Shown: positions 2 to 49,401 of the stretch, one piece after another
Position numbering within the stretch: position 1 is the stretch's first letter
Layout of the letters: each line of letters begins with the position of its first letter
NCBI GenBank assembly: GCA_003510435.1
Contig: DOMK01000018.1
Span: 14,121 to 78,120, forward strand
DNA length: 64,000 bases
DNA from: Candidatus Magasanikiibacteriota bacterium
Lineage (GTDB): Bacteria > Patescibacteriota > Patescibacteriia > Magasanikbacterales > UBA922
Reading direction: 5' to 3'
Position numbers and translations under genes: made by a program
The notes under the pieces: generated by a model
Told to the model about the DNA's origin: nothing
What the model saw: the letters and a program-made list of their open reading frames with translations, nothing else
Database searches by the model: none

Positions 2-694
2 AATCTTGATTGGGTACTAATTTTATCAGTAATTCCACTCTTGCTCTCAGCTTTTTTTGCTCTTCTTATCAAAGAAACACCCAAAGTACAGTCCACAGAG
101 GAAGTCCATTATCTTGACCACATAAAATCAGCATACAAGGAAGTAAAACAAAACAAAATCCTCTTATACTTTTTTGCCTTTGCTGTTGGCATAGATATTT
201 TTGGTGGTCTGGAAGAGTTTGACCAATTATATTACCAATTGGCTGGTTTACCTTTATTCGCTTTTGGTATTATAGGGTTTGTGTGGTCAATGCTTAATTC
301 TCTCGGTTCATATTTTGCCCATAAGTTAAAAAATGTACATTGGATTTATTATGGTTTACCTTTTTTTGGTTTTATTCTTTTACTTCTCGTCGGATTTTTT
401 CCGAGCATTCCAATGATTAGTTTATTATTACTATCCTACTTCATAACTTCACCTTTGATTGTCTTAATGGATAGTAAAATTCAACACAATATAAAATCAA
501 TAAGTAGAGCGACAGTAACTTCGGTTAGTCGTCTTCTCATAAACCTTTCTGGAGTCATCATGGCTCCACTCTTTGGACTTATAGCCAAGGTGTGGAATTT
601 ACAAGCAATCTATATTGCGACGGCAGTTTTTTTACTTTTATTTACCATATGGACATTGATAAGACGAAGGGTGTTTAATGAAAATAAAATTTAA
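2..694 (+). CDS. MFS-type transporter, C-terminal half (5' partial; reading frame is open to the window edge)
   Basis: About six hydrophobic TM segments. ORF has no stop between position 2 and the listed Met at 41, so the gene continues upstream of the window. Confidence 0.55.
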   Translation, partial: NLDWVLILSVIPLLLSAFFALLIKETPKVQSTEEVHYLDHIKSAYKEVKQNKILLYFFAFAVGIDIFGGLEEFDQLYYQLAGLPLFAFGIIGFVWSMLNSLGSYFAHKLKNVHWIYYGLPFFGFILLLLVGFFPSIPMISLLLLSYFITSPLIVLMDSKIQHNIKSISRATVTSVSRLLINLSGVIMAPLFGLIAKVWNLQAIYIATAVFLLLFTIWTLIRRRVFNENKI

Positions 695-10290: not shown

Positions 10291-10390
10291 ATATGGAGCT
10301 TTTGTCAATAACTTTGTTTTTTGGCTTATTTTAGCTAAAAAATTAAATTAGTGGATTTTTTATCCACAGGTTGTACCGAATTATTCGTTT

Positions 10391-34520: not shown

Positions 34521-34801
34521 GCCAGTTTTTTAGTATAAATTAATTTAAAGATTAGTGCCGATTCGTGTTAAGATTAGTGTTTATCCACAGACCTACTTGA
34601 CAAATCATTTTATTTGTATTAATATGTTAATACAAAGATATGAATAAAAAAACCCAACAAAATTCAAACCATCACAAAATAGACCTCAGATAAAATTTTG
34701 AAGAAGTTTTATTTTGAGGTCACCTAGAATCGCCAAACAAGCGGTTCTTTTATTTAACCTGAGTGAGTCCGAATGGACGATTTAAAGGGTTTACTCTCCG
34801 C

Positions 34802-41705: not shown

Positions 41706-42329
41706 TTAGATTGCCAGACACTCTGCGACGATATAGCGATTCATCACCGCCATACCATCGACCATCTCACCCTCCTCAATTCTGTGTGTCTCTACAATCT
41801 TAAAACTACCCCAAAGAACATAATCACGCAAAGAATTCTCTGAAAAGTAGAAATCTTCACGCTTACCCCCGTTACCATTCCCATTTAAGATTTTCACGGG
41901 AAATGGCTCATCACCTTCGGCCACTCTAACAGCCAAAAGCAATGGAGCTCCAAGACACATAACTCTACGCAATTCTCGTACAGATGCCATAATCTCTTGT
42001 ACACTATGCATGTTATGCAATACTCTCCAAGAGAGTACTGCACTAAAATAATCATCTGGAAAAGGAAGCTGAGAAAATCTTTGTACCTCAACAAAATTTT
42101 CCAAACCAATAGTAGCTTGACGAGCCCATGGTCCGTCTACTGCGACAACTTCTCTACCGAGAGATCGCAGAACTGATAGATTTCGCCCTCTCCATGCTCC
42201 CCAGTCCAGAACTGGGTTGCGTTCTGAACTCGTAAGGTGGTGGAGCAGGAATTCTTGACCGGAACCAGCCACGAACCCACTAGGTTCATAGCCGATTTCA
42301 TACTTACTCCCTCCGTGCCACTTATCCAT
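41706..42329 (-). CDS. Class I SAM-dependent methyltransferase-like protein (GC-rich island)
   Basis: Degenerate motif I VLDWGAWRGRN, acidic post-I VAVD, motif II-like region. About 48% GC. Strong Shine-Dalgarno AAGGGAGGAAAAAG. Confidence 0.5.
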   Translation of the reverse strand: MDKWHGGSKYEIGYEPSGFVAGSGQEFLLHHLTSSERNPVLDWGAWRGRNLSVLRSLGREVVAVDGPWARQATIGLENFVEVQRFSQLPFPDDYFSAVLSWRVLHNMHSVQEIMASVRELRRVMCLGAPLLLAVRVAEGDEPFPVKILNGNGNGGKREDFYFSENSLRDYVLWGSFKIVETHRIEEGEMVDGMAVMNRYIVAECLAI

Positions 42330-42414
42330 CTTTTTCCTCCCTTTGTTGGGTTGTAGACTCTACCACAATATCGACTTTACAAATCAATATTATGGTAAAG
42401 TCTATTACATAATT

Positions 42415-44199
42415 CTAACTATATTTTTTTCGCAAAATTTTTCCTGCGCCTACTTCATTTTTTAATTTTAAGTAAGCTTCATCCAACGGCACATTAGCTT
42501 GCGAACCAGGAGCAAAACCACAATCCGGATTTAAAATAATTCTGTTCGGTGCCACATACTGCAAAGCTTTTTCTACTCGTGTCACAATTTCTTCTGGTGT
42601 ATCAATGTGTTCAAATCTGCACTCCACACAACCAAGACCTACTTTAAATTTTTCTGGTAAATTTTTTAAGGCGCTAAAATCACCGGCAACTGGGATGCTA
42701 TATTCCAACACAAATTGATCTACATCAATGGCGCTAATGGCAGAAATAATAGCCTCATAGCCACCTTTACCAATCCAACCTTGTCTACCTTTATTGCGCC
42801 GACATAAATGTAATGCTGTTTCTATTCCGTCAATTCCTTTCACAACTTCATTAACTACTTGACAGGCATAATTTAACTCTTTTTTCGGGTCAGAAAATTG
42901 AGTTCGTAATTCTTTATCAACAAATAGACAAATATGAGGATCATCAATTTGCACAATATTAGCACCAGCCTCCCGTAATAAAATAATTTCATTGCGAAGT
43001 ATAGGAATAAGGGCTTCCACAAAAGCCTCACGAGTTGGATAGGCTTTTATAGATTTTTTTTCATCCCACAATCGTTGACCAAGAAGATAAGGCGACGGCA
43101 GGCACACTTTAATTTTTTTAATAGTATGTAATTTCAAAAATTTTGCTTCACGTGCAAAAAACCCAGGTTTATCATAAACCAATTTTTCTTCCACCGTATG
43201 CCATGAACGGCCATCACTTGAATTAAAATAATGTTTAAAACCAGAAGCTATATTGGCTATTACTCCCACATAAGATTTGCGTCGCCATTCTCCATCAGAA
43301 ATTACATCCAAACCAGCCTGCTCTTGCAGTGCTATGGCATAAGCCACTGCCTTATCCAAAATAGGAGAAAAAGGATCACCCTCATTTAGAATAACATCTT
43401 GAACAAATTGTGGTCGCGGCAAACTACCTACAACACTTGCTGGAAATAGCTGTGAGGCAGGTTTCCAAAATTTTTGAGCATAAGCATAATCTTCCAGAGT
43501 ATCAATTTCAATATAGTCACCATGAGTAGTAACAAAATTAATTTTTACACCTTGCTGAACCAAATAATTTAAATAATGTAAAAGATAAGCACGATTTAGC
43601 GGAATGTTTTTTTCAAACTGAAAATTTTTTGGAAGGTTACAAAAATATTCTTTAAATATTTTAGCACCGGCTCGAGAAAATTTAGCCAAGCCAATAAATT
43701 CTCCTGTTGCCAAATCATCTGGAATTGTGCGGCTAAGAGTAGTAATTAGTTCGCCATCCGCTGTTACTTTTTCTGCATCAATGGAGGGGTGAAGACTACG
43801 ATGTACATACCGAGCACGCCAATCAGTATCTACTGCTATGGTAATATCCGCCGGGCTAGCCAATAGTTTTTTAACAATCTCTGGTTTATACAGAATATCC
43901 GAATATGAGCAGATAAAACCATCGCCCATATCATTTATCGCGTAAAAGAGCGATTTTAAAATATTATTATTTTCCCAATTAGTATTATGTCGAAAAGTAA
44001 AATAAGGATATTGTTTTCTTACAACGTCAATTAAATAACCCCCAATAAAAACAATATCCCGTAGTTCTTTTGCTTGATGCGCTTCCAAAATCCAATCTAA
44101 TATCCTTTTATTGTGAACACGAGTAAAAGTTTTTGGTTCAGTATTAGTTAGATGCTCCAACCGCTTACCACGGCCAGCACCTATAATAATTGTTTTCAT
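42415..44199 (-). CDS. Fusion protein: N-terminal sugar-phosphate nucleotidyltransferase plus C-terminal MetE-like (cobalamin-independent methionine synthase family) Zn-dependent domain
   Basis: N-terminus MKTIIIGAGRGKRLEHLT (G-rich NTP-transferase loop). C-terminus VGSLPRP, VQIDDPHI, LHLCRRN, LEYSIP, NPDCGF align with the MetE C-terminal IGSFPQT, IQIDE, HMCY, ENS, NPDCGL Zn-site motifs. Confidence 0.75.
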   Translation of the reverse strand: MKTIIIGAGRGKRLEHLTNTEPKTFTRVHNKRILDWILEAHQAKELRDIVFIGGYLIDVVRKQYPYFTFRHNTNWENNNILKSLFYAINDMGDGFICSYSDILYKPEIVKKLLASPADITIAVDTDWRARYVHRSLHPSIDAEKVTADGELITTLSRTIPDDLATGEFIGLAKFSRAGAKIFKEYFCNLPKNFQFEKNIPLNRAYLLHYLNYLVQQGVKINFVTTHGDYIEIDTLEDYAYAQKFWKPASQLFPASVVGSLPRPQFVQDVILNEGDPFSPILDKAVAYAIALQEQAGLDVISDGEWRRKSYVGVIANIASGFKHYFNSSDGRSWHTVEEKLVYDKPGFFAREAKFLKLHTIKKIKVCLPSPYLLGQRLWDEKKSIKAYPTREAFVEALIPILRNEIILLREAGANIVQIDDPHICLFVDKELRTQFSDPKKELNYACQVVNEVVKGIDGIETALHLCRRNKGRQGWIGKGGYEAIISAISAIDVDQFVLEYSIPVAGDFSALKNLPEKFKVGLGCVECRFEHIDTPEEIVTRVEKALQYVAPNRIILNPDCGFAPGSQANVPLDEAYLKLKNEVGAGKILRKKYS

Positions 44200-44216
44200 A
44201 GTATAATATTAATAAA

Positions 44217-44311
44217 TAAAAAACCTTCGCTCTGTTAAGCGAAGGTGGATAAAATTAAGAATAAACTTAATCAGGCCTTCGCTTAAAAGACATCATCATC
44301 GCCATCATCAT
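44217..44311 (-). promoter_or_regulatory. Candidate leader-peptide transcription attenuator (antiterminator/terminator alternative)
   Basis: Segment A AAGCGAAGG (44284-44276, inside the leader ORF) and segment C AGCGAAGG (44231-44224) are both perfectly complementary to segment B CCTTCGCTT (44245-44237). B:C is an 8-bp stem with a 6-nt loop followed by 6-7 U, ending about 20 nt before the downstream ATG. Confidence 0.5.
44267..44311 (-). CDS. Candidate leader peptide MMMAMMMSFKRRPD (6 Met in the first 7 codons)
   Basis: ATG ATG ATG GCG ATG ATG ATG TCT TTT AAG CGA AGG CCT GAT TAA on the minus strand. Confidence 0.35.
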   Translation of the reverse strand: MMMAMMMSFKRRPD

Positions 44312-44535
44312 ATTTAGTTTGCAATAAAATTCCATAAAAAAACTTCTAACCATAGGTAGAAGTAGTATATAAAACATCTTCCCCTTATGGGTTGGAATTA
44401 CCACCTTGTCTTAAAGATAGGTTGGTAGAGAGTCATTGGGCCAATTCCCTCGTCTCTTCTTGATATAAATTAATTGTCTGTATTTAGATTATCACCACAT
44501 CATTAAATCGTCAAACAACGACTGTGGATAACTAA

Positions 44536-44958
44536 CTACTTTATTTTTAACATCTCAATCACCTGCCAATGATCAAACGCCATATCATCTGATTTAAGTT
44601 CATCTATATTTTTTATTATTAATTCTTTAGCATCACTATCTGCTTTACAATCTTTGAGCATCTCTTCTGAAGGCAAATTTATTTTATAAACAATAGAAAT
44701 TCTTCTTCCTGGTCTTGGATCACGATTCAACCCATCTAAAATAATTAAAAAAACTAAATCTTTAGGATCGATAATTAATCCAGTTTCTTCTTGCAGTTCC
44801 CGAGCACAAGCATGTCTGATATCAATATCATCTAGATCAACATGTCCACCAGGAAAAGCAAATTTCTCCATGAACGGTTCTTTGGCACGCTTAATTAATA
44901 ATATTTTTTCATTATTGATTGTCACTACCGGATCTACTGTAAGTAATATTTCATTCAT
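44536..44958 (-). CDS. Nudix hydrolase
   Basis: Nudix box GGHVDLDDIDIRHACARELQEETGL. Confidence 0.85.
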   Translation of the reverse strand: MNEILLTVDPVVTINNEKILLIKRAKEPFMEKFAFPGGHVDLDDIDIRHACARELQEETGLIIDPKDLVFLIILDGLNRDPRPGRRISIVYKINLPSEEMLKDCKADSDAKELIIKNIDELKSDDMAFDHWQVIEMLKIK

Positions 44959-45032
44959 ATAAATTTATAAAAAATCAATCAAAATTATTTACTATCAGTG
45001 AAATCATTTTGTAAATCTGTATAATCAGTGTT

Positions 45033-47870
45033 TTACTTTAAAAATTTCTTAAGATAAAATCCAGTCAAACTTTTCTTCACTTTAACAATATCTTTTGGCG
45101 TACCCTGAGCCACTACTTCTCCACCCTTCTTACCACCCTCTGGTCCCAAGTCAATTATCCAATCAGCACATTTAATCACATCAAGATTGTGTTCAATGAT
45201 AAGTACAGAATTACCTTTTTCAACCAATTGATTCAAAACATGTAATAATTTTTTTATATCTTCAAAATGCAAACCAGTCGTTGGTTCGTCCAATATATAC
45301 AATGTTTTACCAGTAGCCCGACGCGCCAATTCGGTGGCCAATTTCACTCGCTGTGCCTCACCACCAGACAAGGTCGTGGCTGGTTGACCTAGGTGAACAT
45401 AACTCAAACCCACATCGCGCAAAATTTGTAGTTTATCCGCAATGGCTGGCGTATCCCGGAAAAATCTATATGATTCTTCTACCGTCATATCTAGTACATC
45501 AGCAATATCTTTTTGACGATAATGAATTTCCAAAGCTTCTTGATTATATCTTTTACCTTTACATTCTGGACACTCTACAAATACATCTGATAAAAATTGC
45601 ATGGGAATCCGAACATAACCTTCACCCGCACAAGCTTCGCATCTGCCCCCACCTTTAACATTAAAACTAAATTTACCCGCATCATAACCGCGCATCTTGG
45701 CTTCTGGTACAGCCGTAAACAAATCTCTAATCGCACTAAACACGCCGGTATAAGTCGCTGGATTGGAACGTGGCGTTCGGCCAATTGGTGTTTGGTCAAT
45801 TACAATGACTTTATCAATATTACTTAGGCCTTTTATTTTTTTGTGCTCAGCTGGTTCTGCTTTGGCGCGGTAAAAATGTTGATTCAAAGCTTTGCCTAAA
45901 ATCTCAGTAATCAAAGTTGATTTGCCCGAGCCAGATACGCCAGTCACACAGAGCAATTGACCTAAAGGAATTTTGACATCAATATTTTTCAAATTAAAAG
46001 CTTTAGCCCCAATAATTTCTATACTCTTACCATTACCTTTATGTAATTTTTTTGGTATGTCAATTTTTTCTTTGCCAGTCAAATATCTACCCGTCAAAGA
46101 TTTTGGGCTCTTTTTTATTTGCGCCGCTGTCCCAGTAGCCATTATTTCTCCACCATATTCACCCGCTCCTGGACCGACATCCACCACAAAATCAGCCGCT
46201 TCCATCATGGCACTATCATGTTCTACCACAATCACAGTATTTCCCTGGTCGCGTAAAGTTTTTAGAGTGGTAATTAATTTATCATTATCTCTGGGGTGCA
46301 AACCAATTGAGGGTTCATCCAAAATATAAATTACCCCAGTCAAACCAGTTGAAAGTTGAGTGGATAGACGAACCCGTTGACCTTCACCACCAGACAGAGT
46401 CGCGACTGATCTGTCTAGAGTTAAATAATACAGCCCAACTCTTAATAAATCTTCCAATCGTTTACTAATTTCCTTGGCAATTGGCAAAGCAATCAACAAA
46501 TCAGTCTTAGAAAATAGACTTTGCATTTTACCTTTAACATTTTGCAATTCTTTAAAAAATTCATTAGCTTCTTCTACACTCATCTCTACCATGTCAGCAA
46601 TAGAATGGTCACCTACTTTTACAAACAAAGATTCATTTTTTAATCTTTTTCCATTACAAGACGGACAAATTTTTTCTTTCATATACTGTTCAATTTCTTT
46701 TCTAATATAATCAGAATCTGTCTCGGCATGACGTTGGGTAAGATTTGGAACTATACCTTCAAAATGAAATTTTTTATTATCAACACTATAGACTGTACCA
46801 TCAGTTCCAAAAAACAAAATATCCATCACCTCTTTTGGCAAATCTTTGACTGGAGTATCAATGGAAAAACCTTGAGTCTTGGCCACTTCTACTAATAATT
46901 TTTGATAAAAAGTTTGATTACCTACAATTCTTGTCCAGGGCTGAATTGCCCCTTCGGCCAAAGTAAGGCGAGGATTAGGAATAACTAATTCTGGATCAAC
47001 ATCTAGAGTTCGACCCAAACCAGTACAACGTGGACAAGCGCCATAGGGACTATTAAAACTAAAACTCCGTGGCTCGACTGGATTAAATTGACGATTACAC
47101 CCCCGACAAACTGGCTGAGTAGAATAATAATATTCATCGCCACTGTCTTCATCCAAAACTACAATCTCACCATTTGATAAATCAATGGCCTTATCAACCA
47201 ATACCACGACATCTTGCTTTTTTATGTCAGTTATTTTTCCAATTAATAATTCTACGGTATAATTTTTTTCTGCATCAAATTTATATTTGGCCAATTCCAA
47301 CATTTTCATGATTATGCCATTTAGACGTACACTCTCATAACCAGTTTGTTCTAAGTGAGATAATAAATCTTTGGCTTTGATGGTTTTACCTTTTACTATT
47401 GGAGCCAAAATAATTAATTCTGAACTCTTGCGTGCCAAACTTCTCACGGCTTCAGAAATTTCTCCAATAGAAAAACTTTTTACTGGCAAATTGCAATCAG
47501 GACAATATTGTACACCCATGCGAGAAAATAAAAGACGCAAGTGGTCATAAATCTCGGTCACGGTTCCCACAGTTGAACGTGGATTTTGGGAAACACTTTT
47601 TTGATCAATCGCAATCGTTGGTGACAAACCCTTTATTTCATCCACATTTGGTCTATCTTGTACGTCCATAAATTGCCGAGCATAAGATGACAAACTCTCA
47701 GCATAACGTCTTTGCCCTTCAGCGTAGATAGTGTCAAAGGCTAAAGAAGACTTTCCTGATCCGGAAAGTCCTGTAATCACTGTTAATTTGTTTTTTGGTA
47801 TTTCTAGTGAAACGCCCTTCAAATTATGAACCTTGGCGTTCTTGATAATTATTTTATTTTGTTCACTCAT
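45033..47870 (-). CDS. uvrA: Excinuclease ABC subunit A
   Basis: 945 aa; two ABC ATPase modules ([20 protein letters not shown]), LSGGE signatures, Zn-finger Cys clusters. Confidence 0.97.
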
Positions 47871-47964: not shown

Positions 47965-49401
47965 TTAATTATAAAATTTAATTTCACCAACATAAATATC
48001 AAGTTGCTGACTTTCCCCATCCAAAATACTAGGTGACAATAAAAATTCTTTTGGTTTTCCACCTCCGCCACCGTCATAAGAATCTTTTACAAAACTATTA
48101 AAAAATCCCGTAGAAACACTACTATTACCCAAATCAAACGATCTTGTTTTATTTCCCGAATCTACACCAATAAAATGGGCTTCATCCACAGGCCAATAAG
48201 TTTCATCAAGGTCCACATTTAAAACAAAACCTGCAACATTTTCCTTGTTACCACAGTCATTAGCTCCTTCTTCCAAATCTTTTGTCGATGCACTAGTAAT
48301 ATAACTCATATTTGTCCCATCAAAAAAAATACTATCTACAAAATTTGGTATTGGAAAATAACGACCAGAGTCACATACAACATACAAATCAAAATCATTA
48401 ACTAAAGTAGGAGAATCAAAATCCCAACTCCAATCAAAAGCTGCTAAAAGTGGTTTAACTACATGTCCCCAAATTATGGCTTTCTTACAACCATATTTTG
48501 GCTTATCAGAAGAAAAATCTTTCAAACAAGTATAAGTCGAGGTTTTATTAGTATTTTCATTTTCTGTACAATAATCTCCGCGACACACGTCAGCCCCACC
48601 TGAAACATATACTAACTGATTACCACAACTAAAATTAGTTTTTAAGGCTACTTTATCTTTTGTGTCATATATAATTGTATATGATTCTGCTTTTTTTGCT
48701 CCACCCGAAGGATCTTTTAATTTTTCCTTTATTGAATCTTCGGTCAAGACTGTATCTTTATTTCCCACAATCAAAAATTTTTCATTGTCTCGTCCACTCA
48801 AATCTTTACAAAATTCTTGTGGGGCCAAGCGTTTATTAATCAACCAAATCTGGGGCATACGAAGATTAACCAAATTAGGATTTAAAACATTTAAAAGGCT
48901 GTAGGACAACAAAGCAATGATCAAACCAATTATCGAGCCAGAAATTAATTTCTGTGCTTCTTTAATTTTTTCTGCACTACCACCCGATGTCACCCATACC
49001 AGACCAGATCGAATAATCATAAAAACTGCTAAAAGACCAACTACTACTACGCCATATCGATAAATATACTGAATAAAATCACCAAGATGAGCAAAATTAT
49101 TTTTACCACCAAATTTAATTGAGGTATTAGTTTGCCCAACTGGTAAACAAAAACCCATTGTTTTATCTTTACCTGTATTTATTTCTTTTCCACACACTTC
49201 AGCCGCGTCAGCTCCAGAATAAAAACCATTTTCAGCTTCCTTTTGTGGTAAATTTAATTCTTGCCGACGAAATTCCCAACAATCCTTTTCTGTCCAACAG
49301 CGAGCATCTACGGCCTGAACTGATTTAAGAGGTAAAAAAGCCAAAAAACCAATTATTATAATAAAAAAAGACAAGACTTTTTTTTGTTTAATAAAATACA
49401 T
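47965..49401 (-). CDS. Hypothetical secreted/membrane Cys-rich protein with an internal 2-TM hairpin
   Basis: Signal/TM MYFIKQKKVLSFFIIIIGFLAFLPLKSVQA; hydrophobic hairpin GVVVVGLLAVFMIIRSGLVWVTSGG...IIGLIIALLSYSLL; at least 14 Cys in the extracytoplasmic part. Confidence 0.5.
   Translation of the reverse strand: MYFIKQKKVLSFFIIIIGFLAFLPLKSVQAVDARCWTEKDCWEFRRQELNLPQKEAENGFYSGADAAEVCGKEINTGKDKTMGFCLPVGQTNTSIKFGGKNNFAHLGDFIQYIYRYGVVVVGLLAVFMIIRSGLVWVTSGGSAEKIKEAQKLISGSIIGLIIALLSYSLLNVLNPNLVNLRMPQIWLINKRLAPQEFCKDLSGRDNEKFLIVGNKDTVLTEDSIKEKLKDPSGGAKKAESYTIIYDTKDKVALKTNFSCGNQLVYVSGGADVCRGDYCTENENTNKTSTYTCLKDFSSDKPKYGCKKAIIWGHVVKPLLAAFDWSWDFDSPTLVNDFDLYVVCDSGRYFPIPNFVDSIFFDGTNMSYITSASTKDLEEGANDCGNKENVAGFVLNVDLDETYWPVDEAHFIGVDSGNKTRSFDLGNSSVSTGFFNSFVKDSYDGGGGGKPKEFLLSPSILDGESQQLDIYVGEIKFYN

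Follow-up and report, generated by a model that had tools for sequence, protein, structure and literature searches.

A candidate methionine-codon transcription attenuator in series with a SAM-I riboswitch upstream of a methionine-synthase-like gene in a CPR bacterium

Leader peptides, riboswitches, and methionine genes

Attenuation of transcription by leader peptides is the textbook mode of control for histidine, tryptophan, leucine, threonine, isoleucine/valine, and phenylalanine; the control of methionine genes is attributed to S-adenosylmethionine (SAM) riboswitches, T-boxes, and protein regulators. To our knowledge, methionine is the conspicuous absentee among leader-peptide attenuators, and gene regulation in bacteria of the Candidate Phyla Radiation (CPR) is almost unexplored. 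Here, we describe a leader on the minus strand of a 64-kb stretch of DNA from a Candidatus Magasanikiibacteriota bacterium (64,000 nucleotides of contig DOMK01000018.1, hereafter called the window). In this leader, a SAM-I riboswitch is followed by a short open reading frame (sORF) that begins with a run of Met codons and by two mutually exclusive hairpins, the second of which is a terminator that ends just before a methionine-synthase-like gene.

A published inventory of operons under attenuation (trp, his, leu, thr, ilvGMEDA, ilvBN, as well as pheA) has no methionine member, and a large share of regulatory codons and the scarcity of Met in proteins are features predicted in the same work to sensitize attenuation (PMC1183508). 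In Actinobacteria, a survey turned up methionine operons but no RNA element associated with them (PMC1262725). No Met leader peptide is described in the full-text literature that we searched, which leaves out most subscription journals and so is no proof of absence.

The leader described here resembles the classical attenuators in its short leader ORF rich in codons for the end-product amino acid, in its predicted overlapping hairpins, 1:2 (tentative in the window), 2:3 (antiterminator), and 3:4 (intrinsic terminator), just upstream of the first structural gene, in a fraction of regulatory codons that is his-like (6/7), and, as we propose below, in the selection of one hairpin by the position of a ribosome. 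It differs from them in its regulatory amino acid, which is methionine, and in the placement of the codon run, which starts at the initiation codon here and lies mid-peptide or at the end in theirs, so that the supply of initiator tRNA would also enter. Moreover, the 1:2 hairpin is weak in the window, and the default of an untranslated leader would therefore probably be read-through, not superattenuation. Finally, the host is a CPR bacterium poor in Shine-Dalgarno (SD) sequences, and the module is serially coupled to an S-box.

Two other types of methionine control invite comparison. In Firmicutes, Met-specific T-box leaders sense the charging of Met-tRNA and control an intrinsic terminator before methionine genes. 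Unlike these, the present leader has no T-box sequence or structure (no Rfam match at E up to 1), and sensing would go via the translating ribosome rather than by direct binding of tRNA to the leader. With SAM-I (S-box, RF00162) control, the window shares an aptamer and a terminator at the same gene, and relatives use the S-box alone. The Met module, however, is separate from the S-box and downstream of it, and it stands S-box-free in several loci (L083, L096, L099, L101, L112, L003, and L100, where L numbers denote the related loci that we compared).

Leaders with two devices in series are also known. Bacillus clausii metE, for instance, carries tandem SAM-I and adenosylcobalamin riboswitches. 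The Salmonella mgtA and mgtCBR leaders are reported to combine riboswitch or ATP sensing with proline-codon sORFs (PMC3641672). All of these would resemble the present leader in having two independent sensors, each with its own termination decision, arranged in series with AND/NOR-type logic, and the Salmonella leaders also in mixing RNA sensing with the translation of an sORF. What sets the present leader apart is that it joins a SAM riboswitch to a Met-codon leader peptide, which would sense Met-tRNA charging and SAM, two successive metabolites of one pathway, and that each module also occurs alone in relatives. A further parallel comes from actinobacterial cys and cbs operons, upstream of which sORFs with cysteine codons are predicted (PMC1262725). 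These likewise belong to a sulfur-amino-acid pathway, contain a run of the cognate codon in a short ORF, and fall outside the classical proteobacterial set; nevertheless, they lack a recognizable terminator or antiterminator and have their Cys run near the stop codon, whereas both structures are explicit here.

A Met-codon run and competing hairpins in the window

The leader sORF, which we count as 14 codons plus a stop codon (44311..44267), has ATG at six of its first seven codons and contains segment A, whose reverse complement, segment B, can pair either with A or with a third segment, C (Table 1). A preliminary description of this DNA, made from the letters alone, had placed the sORF and all three segments, and every one of its coordinates proved exact on the minus strand. 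A:B amounts to 9 bp in the window and is mutually exclusive with B:C. The latter hairpin (44246..44223; 10 pairs, a loop of 4, and a T-rich tail) is the sole terminator-like site that a scan found in 43900-45100, compared with 0.4 in shuffled sequences, in agreement with the terminator that had been predicted before the gene. The T-run after C reads T6-A-T3 (44223..44214) and ends 14 nt before the gene's ATG at 44199. Both of the alternative folds envisaged earlier appeared when 44330-44200 was folded: B:C is in the minimum free energy (MFE) structure (-26.7 kcal/mol), and A:B is in the centroid (-22.2).

The preliminary description stopped at three segments. A probable fourth, A', lies just 5' of A, and with it the family would follow the classical four-segment scheme of 1:2, 2:3, and 3:4 hairpins, in which segment 1 resembles 3 and segment 2 resembles 4. 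A' is weak in the window (six pairs with A, including two G-U; about -4 kcal/mol for the whole stretch in a local fold) and strong in L112 and L100. The weak segment 1 of the window copy would be compensated by a stop codon that sits 6 nt beyond A.

Neither the box nor the codon run is a common sequence. Six copies of CCTTCGCTT with at most one mismatch occur in the 64-kb window, three of them within these 61 nt, where about 0.009 would be expected per such span. The idea of a dispersed repeat or mobile element was rejected, as the box is no commoner elsewhere in the window than chance, and as a covariance model of the element (see below) matched nothing but leaders of this operon and, in one lineage, a miniature version inside the operon. 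Runs of five ATG in six codons were sought on both strands of 1.5 Mb (the window and related loci), and all of them belong to this operon's leaders. That scan also reported spurious reverse-strand "Met runs" at many loci, because the leader is complementary to Ile codons: leader AUGAUGAUG and the stretch AUCAUCAUC that encodes Ile-Ile-Ile (codons 4-6 of the gene) are perfectly complementary in L001 (3010-3018) and L112 (1740-1748).

The module does not correspond to a cataloged family. An Rfam search of 42000-46000 with E up to 1 returned only the neighboring S-box and two chance matches to microRNA models, with no T-box and no leader family; none of the curated leader models (His, Trp, Leu, Thr, and similar) matches the Met module. 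The T-box model also had no match at its gathering score in 17 related loci, and Rfam 15 is without a family that matches the Met-run module.

Table 1. Features of the leader and its operon in the window
Feature	Position	Strand	Sequence or description	Basis
Leader sORF, 14 codons plus stop	44267..44311	(-)	MMMAMMMSFKRRPD, then stop; ATG ATG ATG GCG ATG ATG ATG TCT TTT AAG CGA AGG CCT GAT TAA	
Regulatory Met-codon run	44291..44311	(-)	ATG in 6/7 first codons	Sequence; ATG columns in ten-leader alignment
Segment A' (segment 1)	44286..44291	(-)	GUCUUU; can pair with GAAGGC of A (44280-44275); weak in window	
Segment A (segment 2), antiterminator 5' arm	44276..44284	(-)	AAGCGAAGG; sORF codons 10-12	Sequence, folds
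Small A/U-rich spacer hairpin across stop codon	44253..44272	(-)	AUUAAGU-UUAUUC-UUAAUUU	MFE and centroid
Segment B (segment 3), partner of A or C	44237..44245	(-)	DNA CCTTCGCTT, RNA CCUUCGCUU	Sequence, folds, pair counts
Segment C (segment 4), terminator 2 3' arm	44224..44231	(-)	AGCGAAGG	Sequence, terminator scan
Terminator 2	44214..44246	(-)	10-pair hairpin (44246-44223) plus UUUUUUAUUU	Terminator scan, consensus fold of 10 homologues
Probable promoter	44486..44514	(-)	TTGACG (44514-44509), 17-nt spacer, TAATCT (44491-44486)	Assigned by comparison
SAM-I (S-box) aptamer	44371..44469	(-)		RF00162: 64.5 bits, above the gathering score of 44.4; E 6.3e-14; match to the full model (1-108)
Terminator 1 (S-box expression platform)	44336..44363	(-)	ACUUCUACC-UAU-GGUUAGAAGU, then U7	Sequence; hairpin in whole-leader fold
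Regulated gene, 594-aa fusion of MobA-like nucleotidyltransferase and short ("core") cobalamin-independent methionine synthase	42415..44199	(-)		Pfam PF12804 and PF01717
Probable second operon gene, 207-aa class-I methyltransferase-fold protein	41706..42329	(-)		Pfam Methyltransf_11/23/25

Conservation and modularity among relatives

Homologous loci were taken from genome and metagenome collections and by exact-protein look-up; their proteins are 63-81% identical to the window protein. The preliminary description had reasoned that its proposal would suffer if neither the Met-run sORF nor the complementarity of A, B, and C recurred in such loci, and the opposite was found. A Met-run sORF with an antiterminator segment inside it and a terminator after it lies upstream of the same operon in 10 further nonidentical CPR loci. 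Most of these leaders, here called type I (L001, L081/L083, L096, L099, L101, L089, L106, L107, and L112-114), have a common GCGAAGG / CCTTCGC / CGAAGG core along with the Met-rich sORF.

Four leader states occur among the close relatives (peptides are given up to the stop codon; the homologous peptides include MMVAMMMSSWRRICFSLR besides those listed). First, the tandem state of the window, with S-box, terminator 1, Met sORF, and A/B/C, is found in L001 (MMMTMMPLKRRIVFGIFT), L106 (MMMNMPCYWRWAGFV), and L107 (MMSMPSTWRRICFCF), as well as in L089 (MMSMLSLWRRICFYLS), where a stand-alone core-MetE gene lies downstream. Second, the Met sORF and A/B/C follow straight after the promoter, with no S-box, in L081/L083 and L096 (MMMAMMMSSWRRICFSLR), L099 (MMVAMMM...), L101 (MMMAMMTSYGEGCVLCR), and L112-114 (MMVAMPSRRRSGWSLR). 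Third, an S-box with a single terminator and no Met module is present in L085/L109/L110, L097/L098, and L002, the last of these recognized by eye and under the Rfam threshold. Fourth, the fusion gene comes after the methyltransferase gene, and the leader lies further upstream, in the Jacksonbacteria (L003) and Peregrinibacteria (L100) versions. Gene order in L084 is alike; its available sequence begins inside the upstream gene, which places its leader outside the comparison.

In an alignment of ten type-I leaders (A2), the ATG columns vary little or not at all, neither CCTTCGC nor CGA.GG varies, and six of the seven positions of the A core, GCGA(A/U)GG, never change, while the spacer between the boxes is full of substitutions and indels and is the least conserved part. 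The small A/U-rich spacer hairpin of the window is accordingly not kept in relatives. A covariance model built from the ten leaders found the unseen L112-114 at 56.8 bits and no other strong match in 517 kb. A:B is 87% paired across the type-I leaders, with an invariant seven-pair core and two to three outer pairs that show compensatory changes (A-U/A-U in the window versus U-A/G-C elsewhere). For B:C the figure is 88%, and the terminator stem covaries at its base, as judged from pair counts and a consensus fold of 10 homologues.

L083, L096, L099, L101, and L112 have a single promoter, upstream of the sORF, and a terminator whose end is 11-18 nt from the start of the gene. Because a constitutive terminator at that distance would silence the operon in those five loci, terminator 2 must be conditional.

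Some relatives have an sORF that extends further beyond A (6-7 codons) than in the window. These long-tail relatives have a predicted local hairpin in which a pyrimidine-rich A' (CCUU[C]) pairs with A, at -4 to -10 kcal/mol. Equivalents stronger than that of the window occur in L112 (-10.0), L107, L106, and L100 (a 14-bp hairpin). In L001, the A':A hairpin and the conserved U-rich tract after A were scored as terminator-like by the scan, which suggests, by analogy with trp and his, a pause hairpin. An additional partner for A, a TTCGCC box in the 5' untranslated region upstream of the sORF in L083-type loci, was considered and rejected, as it is absent from L101 and from the tandem loci.

Two side observations concern relatives of this leader. 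A miniature type-I element lies inside the operon, between the core-MetE stop codon and the methyltransferase gene, in L109 (2534-2647), L085 (2559-2672), L110, and L111 (1308-1421). It consists of an sORF, MAMPHHR, with an A box, GGTGAAGG, overlapping its stop codon, followed by CCTTCGCC-ACC-CGCGAAGG and T6 (31-32 bits, E about 4e-4), and loci that have it carry the S-box alone at their 5' end. A weaker match in L112 (3531-3646) overlaps the last core-MetE codons (...MMPPSLSGAG, then stop) and is doubtful. The closest fusion homologue, in L095 (81% identity), has a different leader (640-868) with no Met run, no S-box, and no Rfam match, and shares with type-I leaders the last approximately 25 nt before the ATG (GGTTTTTTAATTTTAAC). 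This leader may be a rearrangement or an assembly chimera.

The same layout built from unrelated helices

Two further lineages have leaders whose paired segments are unrelated to those of type I. The Jacksonbacteria version (L003, L087, and L088) starts from a promoter that scores 11/12 and encodes MMMGMMREDHQTAAG. In L003, segment A is formed by the last sORF codons, ACGGCGGCUG, and pairs with a B segment, CAGCCCUCGU, that supplies both the 5' arm and the loop to an unrelated terminator, AACAGCCCUC-GUUU-GGGGGUUGUU.

In Peregrinibacteria L100, the sORF MMMSSTEFRGRLI lies inside a 14-bp hairpin (segments 1:2), which is followed by a terminator, CCCCACGGA...UCCGCGGGG plus U7; the whole leader fold has a z score of -4.0. 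When a ribosome on codon 2 or 3 is masked and C is not yet made, segment 2 pairs with the 5' arm of the terminator. The L100 operon contains the methyltransferase gene, the fusion gene, and then a gene for methionyl-tRNA synthetase (MetRS). Because the architecture of Met run, segment 2 within the sORF, and terminator is kept while the helices are entirely different, these leaders provide the strongest form of covariation available here.

An ORF at 206-466 (+) in L100 encodes a protein with a CxxC...CxxC motif and a helix-turn-helix-like C terminus (MTCPHCQKQE...RWKKRLKFFN), reminiscent of IS1 InsA. It is situated after the terminator of the Met leader and before the methyltransferase gene and may be either a remnant of an insertion or a regulator.

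Probable translation of the sORF

Several lines of indirect evidence point to translation of the sORF. Between the Met run and A, insertions and deletions come in multiples of 3 in every locus except L101, where a 1-nt deletion before A is followed by a 2-nt deletion after it. As a result, A is read there as GGC GAA GGA instead of TGG CGA AGG, and the frame is still open, ending at the same AGATAA. The peptides of the three leader types have the Met run alone in common, which favors a role for the codons themselves over a peptide that functions on its own or causes arrest. Both kinds of peptide were rejected, since the sequence after the run differs between types and is frame-shifted in L101.

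An SD sequence is not a useful guide in this organism. Within the window, SD-like 4- to 5-mers at -20 to -4 precede 4 of 44 ORFs of at least 150 aa, equal to the background of 6.5%, and the regulated fusion gene itself has none. Because the genome is SD-poor, the lack of an SD sequence at the sORF is uninformative about its translation, and its absence was rejected as an argument against translation.

A proposed ribosome-mediated attenuator

We propose that a polymerase transcribing the leader meets two checkpoints one after the other, first an ordinary SAM-I riboswitch and its terminator and then a ribosome-mediated attenuator that reads Met codons. A polymerase that has passed terminator 1 would transcribe the 14-codon sORF. 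When charged Met-tRNA is scarce, a ribosome would fail to start or would stall on codons 2-7, sitting on A' and leaving A (codons 10-12) free; as B emerges, it would pair with A, block the B:C terminator, and permit read-through into the methionine-synthase-like gene. When Met-tRNA is plentiful, the ribosome would cross A to the stop codon and occlude A while B and C are made, so that B:C would form and transcription would stop at the U-run 14 nt before the gene. Full expression from tandem leaders would need low SAM and low Met-tRNA charging together. The direction of control makes physiological sense, since low Met-tRNA would free A and allow read-through of a methionine-synthase-like gene.

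The geometry of the leaders is consistent with this proposal. The core of A starts 8-11 nt past the last Met codon and 21-27 nt past the first, and a ribosome held on early Met codons therefore leaves A free. Folding with simple ribosome masks gave A:B (7-9 bp) as the MFE structure before C is transcribed in 10/10 leaders, either with no ribosome or with a ribosome on codon 2. The earlier expectation that a ribosome at the stop codon covers A held in part: such a mask abolishes A:B in the window and L003 but not in relatives whose sORF extends 6-7 codons past A.

We put the probability that the Met module is a ribosome-mediated, Met-tRNA-sensing transcription attenuator at roughly three in four. 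The interpretation as a Met-codon attenuator offered in the preliminary description is thus supported, in particular by the recurrence of the module in 10 further nonidentical loci, including two lineages with different helices. The features, their conservation and modularity, and the alternative folds are observed in the sequences and their predicted structures; from them we infer that the sORF is translated, that ribosomes stall at its AUG codons, in which kinetic order the folds form, and what the outcome for regulation is.

A number of points weigh against this proposal. In the relatives with longer sORFs, where a ribosome at the stop codon leaves A uncovered, termination would need a ribosome-polymerase trailing distance of about 50-60 nt or the re-forming of a weak A':A hairpin (-4 to -10 kcal/mol). 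In about half of the full-length leaders, that of the window among them, B:C matches or exceeds A:B in thermodynamic stability, and the model therefore depends on cotranscriptional kinetics. No classical leader has regulatory codons that begin, as here, at codon 1 or 2; Met-tRNAfMet is already required for initiation, and drop-off may occur when a ribosome stalls with di- or tripeptidyl-tRNA. The number of Met codons is just three in some relatives (MMSM, MMM), and in L100 the leader is separated from the met genes by an 86-codon CxxC/helix-turn-helix ORF. Among type-I leaders, none of the seven core A:B pairs varies; a frozen core is expected from a three-way pairing constraint and alone is no proof of A:B. 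Support from covariation comes from two outer pairs, which in effect amount to one event, and from the two types of unrelated sequence, each from a single lineage. The organisms are uncultured, and the number of independent lineages is small.

If the proposal is correct, the mechanism would be a known one with a new amino acid specificity and in a new host clade. We consider it likely that this is the first Met-specific leader-peptide attenuator and that it represents a small family so far confined to CPR/Patescibacteria (Magasanikbacteria-type, Jacksonbacteria, and Peregrinibacteria). Its start-codon run would read both initiator and elongator Met-tRNA, the module would be free-standing and combinable with an S-box to respond to low SAM plus low Met-tRNA, and classical ribosome-coupled attenuation would operate in SD-poor, ultrasmall bacteria.

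A conserved Met-run attenuator would fill a gap in the textbook list, even though a Met leader might seem unworkable, since initiation needs methionine. It would also show, in a natural setting, how a ribosome can still steer RNA folding when it has stalled as early as codons 2-7 and would be a rare defined regulatory mechanism in CPR bacteria. A compact leader made of a riboswitch and a peptide attenuator, whose parts are separate in relatives, would be useful for studies of module gain and loss and for synthetic biology. Finally, the leader would mark the widespread nucleotidyltransferase/core-MetE fusion and its partner methyltransferase as methionine-cycle genes.

Alternative explanations

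The most serious alternative, although we regard it as unlikely, is that the leader is a translation-dependent switch and not a sensor of Met-tRNA. The sORF would be translated and the position of the ribosome would set A:B against B:C, with the AUG run serving another end: as a set of many SD-less starts, as a sensor of initiator tRNA, formylation, or translation capacity, or in nascent-peptide arrest by Met or SAM. Such a switch would explain why the run begins at the start codon, as any AUG in it could initiate and a cluster of start codons might aid initiation in a genome without SD sequences; also, type-I peptides have a common (W/K)RRI(C/V)F after the run. Nevertheless, ordinary genes here start with a single ATG and no SD sequence, so clusters are unneeded. 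The peptide after the run differs among the three types and L101 reads another frame, which speaks against an arrest peptide, and the cargo is specific to methionine (a MetE-like domain, an S-box, and MetRS in L100).

Less likely still is an RNA-only or protein-mediated switch, in which the AUG repeats and the GCGAAGG / CCUUCGC boxes would bind a trans factor or ligand or would act as a T-box-like sensor of tRNA-Met with AUG as the specifier, all with no translation. A plain terminator would not usually show the high conservation of primary sequence that the three boxes have within type I, and AUG is complementary to the tRNA-Met anticodon. The three-way pairing constraint already accounts for the frozen boxes, however, and neither a T-box nor any other Rfam family matches the Met module at E up to 1, nor is there a conserved bulge or loop fit for the acceptor end of tRNA. 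Types II and III share with type I just the AUG run and the architecture, which implies that there is no common aptamer, and the compensating frameshifts of L101 preserve the integrity of an ORF.

We give very little weight to the view that nothing here is regulatory, that is, that terminator 2 is constitutive, a backup, or the end of a small gene and that the sORF is a chance ORF or encodes a functional micropeptide. Short ATG-rich ORFs with a downstream T-run do arise elsewhere by chance, and AT-rich leaders readily form hairpins, but this element recurs at the same position in 10 further nonidentical loci and accounts for all of the 5-of-6 ATG runs in 1.5 Mb, its A box is conserved though its peptide is not, and in five loci nothing else stands between promoter and gene, where a terminator acting constitutively at 11-18 nt from the ATG would leave the operon silent.

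Equally improbable, and rejected because it is not conserved in the window or where the first gene differs, is translational control in which the AUG run pairs over long range with AUC/AUU Ile codons 4-6 of the gene to mask or unmask its start region: the complementarity of AUGAUGAUG and AUCAUCAUC is exact in L001 and L112, yet the window codons AUU AUU AUA (44190-44182) permit only G-U-containing pairing, the first gene has no Ile run in L089, L003, and L100, which keep the Met run, and IIIG is a generic nucleotide-binding N terminus in all phyla, including those without the leader.

The upstream SAM-I riboswitch and probable promoter

The preliminary description noted that SAM riboswitches are usual for methionine genes and that a Met-codon attenuator would on that account be unusual. 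It overlooked that one lies immediately upstream. Both an aptamer and an expression platform were found in the sequence, and on these grounds the upstream neighbor is classed as a SAM-I riboswitch, one that has a terminator to itself. This makes the leader a tandem, in which the Met module is a serial second checkpoint and not a replacement. Rfam also places an S-box at the homologous position in L001, L089, L106, L107, L085/L109, and L097. An equivalent of terminator 1 was called by the scan in L001 (2818-2836) and is visible in L089, L106, and L107.

The promoter of the window is an assignment by comparison, because the consensus scan did not list the window copy. Matches to TTGACN-N17-TAnnnT occur at the same relative place in L001, L083, L096, L101, L089, L106, L107, L112, and L003, and that of L003 is the one with the score of 11/12 in the consensus scan.

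A DnaA-box consensus, TTATCCACA, is found in either orientation about 8-12 nt upstream of the operon's TTGAC -35 element in the window and most homologous CPR loci. The window has six exact copies (44523-44531 on the minus strand, 34581-34589 on the plus strand, and others at 10360, 26056, 32853, and 63719) versus 0.8 expected, and the copy at 34581 likewise directly precedes a promoter, TTGACA-N17-TAATAT. Copies in relatives are at 2640 in L001, 2772 in L083, 2326 in L089, 1053 in L097, 52 in L101, 374 in L106, 711 in L107, and 1541 in L112. In these genomes, the sequence may be an element that generally accompanies promoters or a site for a factor.

The regulated operon

The protein encoded downstream of the leader is 100% identical to a protein of a Candidatus Magasanikbacteria (CPR/Patescibacteria) metagenome-assembled genome. 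As the preliminary description had it, the gene carries a methionine-synthase-like domain, which Pfam resolves as a fusion of NTP_transf_3 and Meth_synt_2. NCBIfam methionine-synthase models match residues 249-593, below their cutoffs, and relatives in the PDB are 1ypx and 3rpd. In an alignment of homologues of the fusion protein (A1), H464/C466/E499/C560 (H-x-C...E...C) are invariant.

The methyltransferase gene accompanies the fused or split genes in nearly all related loci. Indeed, the trio of nucleotidyltransferase, core MetE (fused or adjacent), and methyltransferase occurs in CPR, Planctomycetota, Verrucomicrobiota, Latescibacterota, Chloroflexota, and others. Outside CPR, control of the fusion gene by RNA was considered and rejected, with no riboswitch found in 19 loci from other phyla. 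Some relatives (L085/L109 and L097) have the same gene under an S-box alone, and control by an S-box and a Met leader ties the trio to the methionine/SAM cycle. Judged by its sequence relationships, the cargo thus appears to fit methionine, with a MetE-type catalytic domain, an S-box on the same gene, and MetRS in the L100 operon.

Between the stop codon of the fusion gene and the methyltransferase gene lies a 24-bp near-perfect hairpin without a U-run (42354-42404, minus strand; -35.6 kcal/mol, z = -8.05), which may function in RNA processing or stability or in the control of translation. The methyltransferase gene has a strong SD sequence, AAAGGGAGGAAAAAGATG, among very few in the window.

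Elsewhere in the window, a 478-aa ORF upstream of uvrA (47965-49401, minus strand) gave a weak match to the type IV secretion pilin family PF18895 (24.9 bits against a cutoff of 26.6), a family common in CPR genomes.

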